This document shows, in pieces, positions 32,358-35,213 of a DNA stretch of 64,000 nt; the first letter of the stretch is position 1, and every line of letters starts with the position of its first letter. The translations under genes and the position numbers were made by a program. The notes below the pieces were generated by a model. It searched no databases. It was not told the origin of the DNA and worked only from the letters and a program-made list of their open reading frames with translations. Source of the DNA: Candidatus Eiseniibacteriota bacterium (GTDB taxonomy: Bacteria; Eisenbacteria; RBG-16-71-46; SZUA-252). The stretch spans positions 2,942-66,941 of the forward strand of contig CAVRUU010000002.1 in assembly GCA_963724515.1 (NCBI GenBank), read 5' to 3'.

Positions 32358-34325
32358 ATGAAGAGATTACTAAGCATTGTCGCGATCCTGTTCCTGGCGA
32401 CTTCGATGCTGCCAGCGAAGGGGCATGCCCTGCTCCGAGGCGCGTTCGACTTCATCAGTGGCACAGGGTCCGATCCTTTCGTCAGAGGGAAGTTCGGCCC
32501 AGTGCTCAGGGGCGGGATCGTGACCGGGACCGGAACCGCCGCGAGCCCGATAAGGGAGCGGTGGGTGACATTCGTCACGCTGAGCTCGGCCGTGGGGAGC
32601 GAGAGCGTCGGCGAGATCTACCTGCTCAGAAACCAGGACCAATCGTTCGCCAGGGGCAACCCCGCCGAGCCGTTGGAAGTGGACCTGACGGGCGCGGTTT
32701 CTTACATCGATCCGGCCTGGTCCAAAGACGGCAAGTGGCTCGCCTACGTTCAGACGGACAACAACGTCAGCGAGGCGAGCATCTACGTACAGCAGTTCGA
32801 TACCGGCACCGCGACCGGTGCTGTGCCCTTGGGAAGCCCGATCCTCATCGCCGATGGCAGCGGCGGCCTTCACCACCGGCACCCGGCGTTCAACGGCGCC
32901 GCCACGCAGATTGCATACGACTCCGACGCGAGCGGTCCCTCGATCGACCTTTGGACCGTGGGCGTCTCGCTGGACGCGACGGCGCATACGGGGACGGTCA
33001 ATGAGGCTTCGCGCGTCCGCCACCAGGTTGGGCTCGATGCCGATAACAACCTGCTCAACGCGAAGGCTGAATTCAAGCCTGCCTTCAGCCCCGACGGCAC
33101 GAAGATCGCGTACGTGACGAATCGGTTCGGATCGTTCCAGATTCAGATCGCGACCATCACGGCCGACGGCTCCGGCGAAACCAACACGGGCGCCGAAGTG
33201 AATCCCGCGCTCGTGACCCACGACAATCCGTCCTGGTCGCCCAACGGCCTCGAGCTCTACTACGACGCGCCGGCGAACGAAGACCCGGCGAATCCTCAGG
33301 ACATCTGGAGAATCACCCTCGCGACTGGACAGAAGTGCAACATCTTCATCGATCTCGCGGGTGACGTCGATCCGGACGTCTCTCAGTACACCAACGTCAC
33401 GCGTGACGGTCTGCCCTACAACTTCTTCACGTTCATCTCTCAGGCGAACGGGCTCGGAGTCCAGGTGTGGCTGGCCGAGGCCATTCAGAACTGCGTGCCG
33501 GCGTTGGCCGTGCAGGTCCAGGCCAACCCGAGTCAGATCGACATCGATCAGGGCACCGACACGGACCTGATCAAGACGACCATCTCCTTCCCGCTCTCCA
33601 TCAGGTCGCTTGGCTACGCGTGCCGGGCGTCCAACACCGGCGGTGAAGGAATCAGGACGCGGAGAACCATCATTCCCAGCCCGACGCTGATGGGACTGAG
33701 GATGCCAAGCACGCCCGACGACGATTCCGACTGCACCAGCATGGCATTCGATGCTTTTGGTGTCGCGGACTCGACGACCTGCTCCAGCATCATCCATGAC
33801 TTCGTCGGTGACGGCAGTTTTGGATGGTGGTCTTTCGTCGATGACACGACGGTCGTCACGCCGCCCACGACGAAGAACACCAAGCTGATCTTCAACTGGA
33901 ATCGGCGGACCATCCAGGCCCAAATCGTGGCTCTCGGACTGGTGAACAAGTACGTTCCCTTGACGTATCGCGCCTACACGAACACCACGGGCCGTCAGCT
34001 CCTGGGCTTCGCGTACGTCAAGCTGGCCAAGGCTAATTACCAGGCCGGCAGCATCGTGTTGGAGCAGAACTTCCCGAACCCGTTCAACCCCGTGACGAAC
34101 ATCAAGTTCGCGGTGGATAAACCGGGTAATGTCGAAGTCCGGGTCTTCAACGTGCGCGGCGAGCTGGTGCGCACCGTCGCCAACGGGTGGTACCCGCAGG
34201 GTCTGCACGCCGTCACTTGGGATGGCAAGACCAGGAGCGGTGGCCAGGCTCCCTCGGGTGTCTACTACATCCGGGCGAAGTCGATTGGTGGCAGCGACGT
34301 GATCAAGGCGGTACTCGCGAAGTAG
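32358..34325 (+). CDS. Secreted TolB-like (PD40 beta-propeller) protein with an FlgD-Ig/T9SS-like CTD
   Basis: I prefer the second ATG (32358) because the GAGGAG RBS is 9 nt upstream of it but abuts the first ATG (32349). Signal peptide [26 protein letters not shown]40-type repeats: [39 protein letters not shown]: [16 protein letters not shown]...[14 protein letters not shown]...[20 protein letters not shown]. Spot GC counts are 55-60%, against about 70% elsewhere. Confidence 0.88.
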
Positions 34326-34350
34326 TCCATTCGCGAATCGAAGCGGCAAG

Positions 34351-34388
34351 GGCCGCGGGGCGAAAGCCTCGCGGCCTTTTGCGTTTTC
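34351..34388 (+). terminator. Rho-independent terminator
   Basis: GGCCGCGGGGC-gaaa-GCCTCGCGGCC hairpin (one G-U pair) followed by TTTTGCGTTTTC, starting 26 nt after the stop. Confidence 0.75.
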
Positions 34389-34453
34389 TCCTGGCTCGAA
34401 ATGAGCGGGGTTCCCTGGGGGCTGCGCCAATCCGAGTCGGATCGCCAAGGTCC

Positions 34454-34639
34454 GACCTGTTCGAGGCGGGCGTGGTGGATCCGACCAAGGTGACGCGGTC
34501 GGCTCTCCAGAACGCCACGTCGGCTGCTTCCTTGCTGCTCCCGACGGAAGCGCTGGTCGTCGAGATCCCCGAGAAGAGGAAGGCGGCTCCCGCGGGCCCG
34601 CACGGCGGCGGCGGTGGCGGCGGCTACGAGGACATGTAT
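34454..34639 (+). pseudogene. groEL: Orphan 3'-terminal fragment of chaperonin groEL (last ~62 codons only)
   Basis: Translates to [62 protein letters not shown]. This matches the near-invariant GroEL C-terminus (..[32 protein letters not shown]..) and its Gly-rich tail. There is no GroEL-like sequence upstream of 34454. A hairpin plus CTTTT at 34653-34685 looks like the original terminator. Confidence 0.8.
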
Positions 34640-34754
34640 TTGTTGGCGAACCCCCCGAGCGGGTCAACCCTGCGGCGGGGCTTTTCGCAGTGCGGCGTCA
34701 GGATGTTGCGCCTGCCCCGGCATGGGTGGGCGCAGCGTTAGGCTCGAGCGCCCG

Positions 34755-35213
34755 CTACCGCTTCTTCTTCAGAACGGCAATCTGCCCCGCGTGGTAGAGG
34801 TCGTGCTGGATGACGCCGTGCAGGAGCTGGTAGCGGGTCGAGTACTTTCCGGTGGGCGATGCGTCCAGCTGCTCATCCCGGACGCCGGCGGCGGTCTCGC
34901 GGAGCTTCATGTGCCCCGCGCGGAGCGCGGACAGCGCGCGTTCCCAGGCCGCCTTGGTCTTGTCCTTGACGGGGGGCCAGTTCTCCTTCGACGTGATATC
35001 CGGGCTCTCCCCGAGCAGCCGCCGCCGTACGACGTCTTCCCACGTCGTGATGTGGAGAACCAGCTCCCAGATGCTGTGAGCCCCCGGAATCGGCTTCTTG
35101 AGCGCGCGCTGGTAGGTCACGCCCGCGAGCACTTCCAGAACGGAGGGCCCGTGCCACGCCTCTCCTTCGAAAGCCTTCGTGAGCTGATCCAGGATCCGAT
35201 CGCGCTCGGACAT
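34755..35213 (-). CDS. DinB-family protein
   Basis: 152 aa. It has the DinB_2-type four-helix pattern with conserved His residues (AWHGPSVLEVL, SIWELVLHITTWEDV, LLHGVIQHDLYHAGQI). Its ATG overlaps the upstream stop by 1 nt (TGATG). Confidence 0.85.
   Translation of the reverse strand: MSERDRILDQLTKAFEGEAWHGPSVLEVLAGVTYQRALKKPIPGAHSIWELVLHITTWEDVVRRRLLGESPDITSKENWPPVKDKTKAAWERALSALRAGHMKLRETAAGVRDEQLDASPTGKYSTRYQLLHGVIQHDLYHAGQIAVLKKKR

Follow-up and report, generated by a model that had tools for sequence, protein, structure and literature searches.

How did the tail of a chaperonin gene come to lie between two genes that are unrelated to groEL, and is it a real part of the genome at all? 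The question is raised by a stretch of 64,000 nucleotides from a Candidatus Eiseniibacteriota bacterium (hereafter, the window), which is part of contig C2 in a 69%-complete genome bin (G000) with 9 contigs and 1.96 Mb in all. Here, a 188-base piece of a groEL tail stands between a PD40/CTD gene and a DinB gene (Table 1). The analysis described below leads us to read the piece, with a probability of about 0.8, as a real ectopic copy, without function, of the 3' end of a second groEL paralogue, groEL2, which would have entered an unstable PD40-DinB spacer by insertion at the DNA level.

Table 1. Features of the PD40-DinB spacer and its two flanking genes, numbered from the first letter of the window
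Feature	Position	Strand	Basis
PD40 beta-propeller protein with FlgD_ig/T9SS-type C-terminal domain, secreted, 658 aa	32349..34325	+	Pfam PD40 E 2e-13, FlgD_ig E 6e-11
Intrinsic terminator of the PD40 gene: 14-bp stem, GAAA loop, T-run	34348..34389	+	Terminator scan; fold
Left spacer part, not groEL-derived	34390..34453		No match to relatives' groESL loci or own genome
groEL2 relic, last 62 codons (D...YEDMY)	34454..34638	+	Nucleotide identity; codon alignment with 14 orthologues
Former stop codon, now TTG	34639..34641	+	TAG in 14/14 orthologues (alignment)
Possible decayed groEL2 3' UTR	34642..34719	+	Imperfect hairpin 34653-34685 and weak terminator match 34688-34719
Right spacer part, adjoining the DinB stop codon	34720..34754		Spacer-size comparison
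DinB_2 family protein, 152 aa, last gene of lipoprotein operon	34755..35213	-	Pfam DinB_2 E 2.6e-15

The extent of the relic was defined by profile and nucleotide comparisons. The Pfam Cpn60_TCP1 profile matches it at profile positions 418-488 of 490 (E 1.2e-6, 28 bits), a score that falls under the 34.3-bit Pfam cut-off because the piece is so short; the groEL genes of relatives match at profile positions 1-488 with about 270 bits. When the spacer was compared by blastn with 40 genomes from the same family, each genome gave one strong match (E down to 1e-64), nearly always covering exactly 34454-34638, with three distant same-family matches beginning 7-9 nt later. As nearly all groEL2 matches begin at 34454, the left breakpoint is sharp (34453/34454). 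An alignment of groEL2 3' ends places the same border within the coding sequence: all 14 relatives read EKFE directly followed by DLFEAG, whereas the window is unrelated to them before GAC CTG. At the other end, the gene closes with TAC TAG in all 14 relatives and with TAT TTG in the window. The relic thereby shows the partial homology and sharp breakpoint of a gene remnant.

These results uphold most of what the initial annotation had read from the letters alone. Only the last ~62 groEL codons are left, as the in-frame match at 34454-34638 in both Cpn60_TCP1 and blastn comparisons shows, and nothing GroEL-like precedes them; about 90% of the gene is gone and about 11% remains. The canonical stop is also missing, and past the TTG the frame stays open up to 34741. 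The verdict that this copy is dead likewise stands, given the truncation, the missing stop codon and replacements at invariant sites. Functional GroEL/Cpn60 proteins (PF00118) have ~540-560 aa, the three domains equatorial, intermediate and apical, a score above the gathering threshold and an intact frame with start and stop, and the relic falls short in both length and frame. No ATG, GTG or TTG occurs in its frame from the upstream terminator to 34454. The relic frame lies within one of two long mechanical ORFs, 34187-34741 (+, 184 aa) and 32370-34667 (-, 765 aa), which overlap the PD40 gene and the relic; both are typical high-GC artefacts that should not be annotated as genes.

The source of the piece can be traced to one of the two groEL paralogues found in relatives, namely groEL2, the one ending in YEDMY and a stop codon. 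Nucleotide identity of the relic to same-genus groEL2 3' ends is 79-89%, versus 70-79% to groEL1 (blastn), in agreement with the earlier suggestion of a second groEL copy, and protein identity to same-genus groEL2 reaches 86-90% over the 62 C-terminal codons, Gly-rich tail included. Judged by these identities, the relic is an ectopic copy of the groEL2 3' end. Among the orthologues, that of G007 is closest (89%), nine others follow at 82-86%, and that of G010 is the most distant (79%); this ranking roughly parallels that of the neighbouring PD40 orthologues, which argues for an origin within this lineage and against a foreign donor.

In relatives, groEL2 lies on other contigs, among conserved neighbours of its own. 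G011, for example, carries groEL2 on contig C14 and the PD40-DinB spacer on C35, and the genes downstream of groEL2 are common to G002, G007 and G010 and do not include DinB. The initial annotation had proposed locating the intact groES-groEL of the same genome. This search came back empty: the relic is the only Cpn60 match, and no Cpn10 is present, anywhere in the 69%-complete bin. The bin also contains no orthologue of any gene within 10 kb of either G011 groESL locus, which places both true groESL neighbourhoods in the unassembled third of the genome.

Chaperonin genes are also fragmented in other assemblies of this family. In its short-read MAGs, groEL is often truncated at contig ends (G001:C23, G002:C56, G007:C60, G010:C77, G017:C176), presumably through tangles that the two paralogues cause in the assembly graph, and such truncations look like orphan fragments in a Pfam scan. 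Candidates for conserved orphan groEL C-terminal fragments in relatives were rejected, as all of them were contig-end truncations of this kind. In two further cases, G009:C24:8859-10254 and G030:C2:123286-124792, the Pfam scan matched one groEL copy as two adjacent pieces, which suggests a frameshift or sequencing error in that copy.

The flanks of the relic belong together in related genomes. In 10 genomes of the genus, an orthologue of the PD40 gene (58-66% identity) is found at this position. DinB orthologues (70-73% identity) follow the orthologue of an 823-aa gene, big823, in G002, G003, G006 and G011; in G008, the DinB-PD40 adjacency alone was seen, with no big823 match there. The window has the order aldehyde dehydrogenase (-), 392-aa protein (-), PD40/FlgD_ig CTD protein (+), terminator, DinB_2 (-), 823-aa protein (-) and 559-aa protein (-), the last two (big823 and p559) being encoded by two large lipoprotein genes. 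Within the genus, this order and orientation are found again in G005, G009 and G011, and partly in G007 and G008. Because the genes on either side of the relic are adjacent and arranged alike in other genomes of the genus, the contig does not combine two loci or genomes. Composition leads to the same result. In tetranucleotide usage, the distance from the genome mean falls at the 6th percentile for the 10-kb block to the left and at the 92nd for that to the right, and the distance between the two blocks is at the 86th percentile of pairs of adjacent sequence windows, so that the compositional discontinuity for which the initial annotation had suggested looking on both sides of the junction did not appear, and its chimeric junction is not borne out.

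The size of the spacer defines the event further. It measures 429 bp in the window versus about 135-170 bp in G011 and G008, where it contains the same terminator hairpin and no groEL sequence (blastn). The location of groEL2 elsewhere in relatives, together with these groEL-free spacers, points to a small lineage-specific insertion of about 190-270 bp, and speaks against the large rearrangement, or the decay of a resident groEL gene at this site, that had also been considered. The piece has the lineage-specific distribution of a gene remnant: it is missing from the corresponding site of G011 and G008, and no other ectopic groEL piece was found by blastn in 40 family genomes. Nor did any of 80 metagenome loci with a gene for a DinB relative contain one. 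Closer relatives were sought through DinB in metagenomes and GTDB genomes, where the best match was 73% identical and none carried a groEL piece. The exact DinB protein has no record in public assemblies and the exact junction pattern had no match among metagenome contigs, two collections that may omit this genome itself; literature searches returned no directly relevant paper.

Among the competing explanations, the least improbable is an assembly artefact, in which a groEL read or graph path was mis-threaded into the spacer, or two loci or genomes were joined inside groEL. It draws on the fact that groEL breaks many short-read assemblies of relatives (contig-end fragments in G001, G002, G007, G010 and G017) and that the bin is incomplete, with both groESL loci missing. 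Against it stand the syntenic flanks and the unbroken composition, and two false junctions, spaced by about 190-270 bp, would be required. The copy, moreover, is not clean: its stop is lost and three invariant sites are replaced, with no indels. We therefore consider an artefact very unlikely.

The state of this copy was assessed by counting private states over the 62 codons and the stop codon, in the window and in 11 same-genus orthologues; as the assembly has no parent groEL2, how old the copy is and which way each private state changed were judged from relatives only. Private nucleotide states number 7 in the window, 4 of them at codon positions 1-2, versus a total of 19 (4 at positions 1-2) in the 11 orthologues. 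At the level of residues and stop codons, the window has 4 private changes and the 11 orthologues together have 1. The four changes are A to T, V to A, T to P and stop to Leu, and the residue sites are invariant in 14/14 orthologues; two further private states of the relic are extra Gly codons only, and alignment to groEL2 orthologues revealed no indels. Binomial tests, which are crude in that they assume equal terminal branch lengths, gave P = 2e-4 for residues and P = 4e-3 for nucleotides, and the bias toward codon positions 1-2 is not significant alone (Fisher P = 0.10). With 4 versus 1 residue or stop changes and 7/26 of the private nucleotide states, the relic shows the relaxed constraint of a gene remnant. 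These counts support the view that it is a real, somewhat aged and decaying pseudogene. A working gene that had been mis-threaded as a clean copy would not show a lost stop and replacements at invariant sites.

The remaining parts of the spacer differ in how firmly their origin can be assigned. The terminator that the initial annotation had placed 65 nt upstream of the fragment is real by both scan and fold: its hairpin (34348-34379, followed by the T-run) has a ΔG of -35.6 and a z-score of -4.0, and it ends about 64 nt before the relic. The same hairpin follows the PD40 orthologue in G002, G003, G005, G006, G007, G008, G009 and G011 (blastn). An Rfam search of the spacer returned only a chance match on this terminator (IRES_Bip, E 0.2). 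The part between terminator and relic is probably ancestral spacer. About 6/10 positions in its last ten nucleotides or so (34444-34453) are similar to groEL2 just ahead of the breakpoint (manual count on the alignment), a similarity that could be microhomology or chance. The spacer parts other than the relic gave only noise against the own genome and both G011 groESL loci.

The right border of the insert is less certain than the left one. The initial annotation had taken the hairpin and T-run at 34653-34685 for the gene's own terminator. This identification is not confirmed: the hairpin is imperfect and folds weakly (ΔG -23.9 kcal/mol, z -1.5, with 17/200 shuffled sequences folding equally well), it is absent from the output of the terminator scan, and it lacks homology to the terminator that is conserved at groEL2. 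The latter is a perfect hairpin, GGGCGGGACC-GNRA-GGTTCCGCCC, with a T-run, which lies 25-100 nt past the stop codon in 14/14 relatives. Its stem of 10-14 bp and GNRA-type loop are conserved across two or more genera (e.g., L018:255-285), and in G007 it reaches a ΔG of -37.7 and a z-score of -4.1. The 25-100 nt from stop codon to terminator hairpin are free to vary among groEL2 loci. The window does not contain this conserved hairpin. A weak match to it was found at 34688-34719, where the best weight-matrix score and the MAFFT alignment coincide, and its empirical P of about 0.05 against random 113-nt genome segments is marginal. Beyond the PD40 terminator, the spacer is too diverged from those of G011 and G008 for an alignment to fix the right border of the insert, which we infer to lie somewhere between 34641 and about 34720. 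If the insert were 34454-34719, a leftover spacer of about 100 nt would remain, similar to the about 83-115 nt that follow the terminator in G011 and G008; by this comparison of sizes, the right spacer part is probably ancestral.

Comparison across the genus also characterizes the site of insertion. The PD40-DinB spacer is minimal in G011 and G008, contains a SARP/BTAD-like regulator gene in G006 (L035 3595-4589) and an extra 460-aa CTD protein in G009 (C98:65117-66837), and measures 0.8-0.9 kb with no convincing ORF in G003 and G005; in G007 (C27), no DinB is present at the site. On these sequence comparisons, the spacer is a local indel hotspot in the genus that differs in nearly every species.

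An ectopic duplication at the DNA level followed by neutral decay is the most economical reading of these observations. The 3' end of groEL2 would have been duplicated, as DNA, into the convergent spacer between the PD40/CTD gene and DinB. Either about 190-270 bp were captured in one step, by repair or illegitimate recombination, or a larger duplicate entered first and deletions then shortened it. After insertion, the copy would have drifted without selection, losing its stop codon and acquiring replacements at invariant sites. Neither flank of the spacer recurs elsewhere in the genome bin, where dispersed repeats are few and small duplicates of a comparable kind are absent. The assembled 69% yielded no Ku gene, so that capture by end joining is without identified machinery here. 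The only near-identical dispersed repeats in the bin, G000:C5:91305-92492/106899-108086 and C4:10365-11113/12306-13054, are 0.75-1.2 kb long and 99.6-99.7% identical, and may be insertion sequences or recent duplications.

A copy made through RNA would be a different route to the same piece. The 3' end of the abundant groEL2 mRNA would have been reverse-transcribed from the terminator and integrated as a 5'-truncated retrocopy that runs from the coding tail to the end of the transcript; in a variant of this idea, the piece, as the 3' tail of the DinB operon transcript, would now act as a groEL2 antisense RNA. The piece is indeed the 3'-terminal part of groEL2, its 5' cut falls at an arbitrary internal position, and it possibly reaches to a decayed groEL2 terminator at 34688-34719 (empirical P about 0.05). 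That terminator match is marginal, though, no reverse transcriptase (RVT_1) was found in the assembled 69%, inspection of the sequence revealed no target-site duplications, and, to our knowledge, mRNA retrocopies are not an established process in bacteria. We regard such an origin, and its antisense variant, as highly improbable. If it were true, it would hint that reverse transcription or RNA-templated repair occasionally copies abundant mRNAs into bacterial spacers.

The least probable reading is a functional element, either an antisense RNA to the groEL2 mRNA 3' end, made by minus-strand read-through from the DinB operon and conceivable because no terminator-like site lies on that strand from the DinB stop codon to the piece, or a small protein translated from an in-frame GTG at 34472 that is preceded by GAGG inside the piece; this GAGG-GTG belongs to the conserved coding sequence of groEL, invariant residues are changed and the stop codon is lost, and the absence of a start, the strong upstream terminator, the lack of a promoter-like site or an Rfam match, and the absence of the piece from all 40 family genomes searched, which leaves conservation unsupported, make a function unlikely.

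The DNA-level copy favoured here has consequences for the use of this contig. As the junction at 34454 is not chimeric, the surrounding operons can be interpreted as those of one genome. For annotation, the 184-codon ORF 34187..34741 should be treated as spurious, and the sole chaperonin match of the bin as a relic, both true groESL loci being missing from the assembly. In itself, the locus is a further case in which an essential gene has left a short ectopic relic in a spacer prone to indels; broader weight would come only if many such cases had a common, possibly RNA-templated, mechanism.

Among known systems, the relic is related by descent to Group I chaperonins (GroEL/Cpn60, PF00118), with whose second paralogue, ending in YEDMY and a stop codon, it shares the 62 C-terminal codons including the Gly-rich tail. 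It has no ATP-binding, apical or intermediate domain and, with ~11% of the gene, it is not a chaperonin. In its proposed mode of insertion, it can be compared to the templated "filler" insertions that arise at repaired double-strand breaks. As in these, a few hundred bp from an unlinked locus lie in a non-coding site with no repeats or mobile-element features; unlike for these, no Ku-type repair machinery was identified, microhomology at the junction amounts to about 6/10 nt at best, and the mechanism is proposed from the product. Bacterial genomes also contain gene remnants and partial-duplicate pseudogenes in intergenic spacers, which are accounted for by a general model of pseudogene formation and deletional bias. 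Unlike remnants that decayed in place, the relic is ectopic and derives from an unlinked locus, that of a chaperonin paralogue which is essential and highly conserved; the parent copy itself is absent from this incomplete assembly. In all other respects that we compared, it matches these remnants: it is truncated with a sharp break, has no start, is disabled, is lineage-specific and lies in a variable spacer. The groEL2 relic is an ordinary gene remnant.
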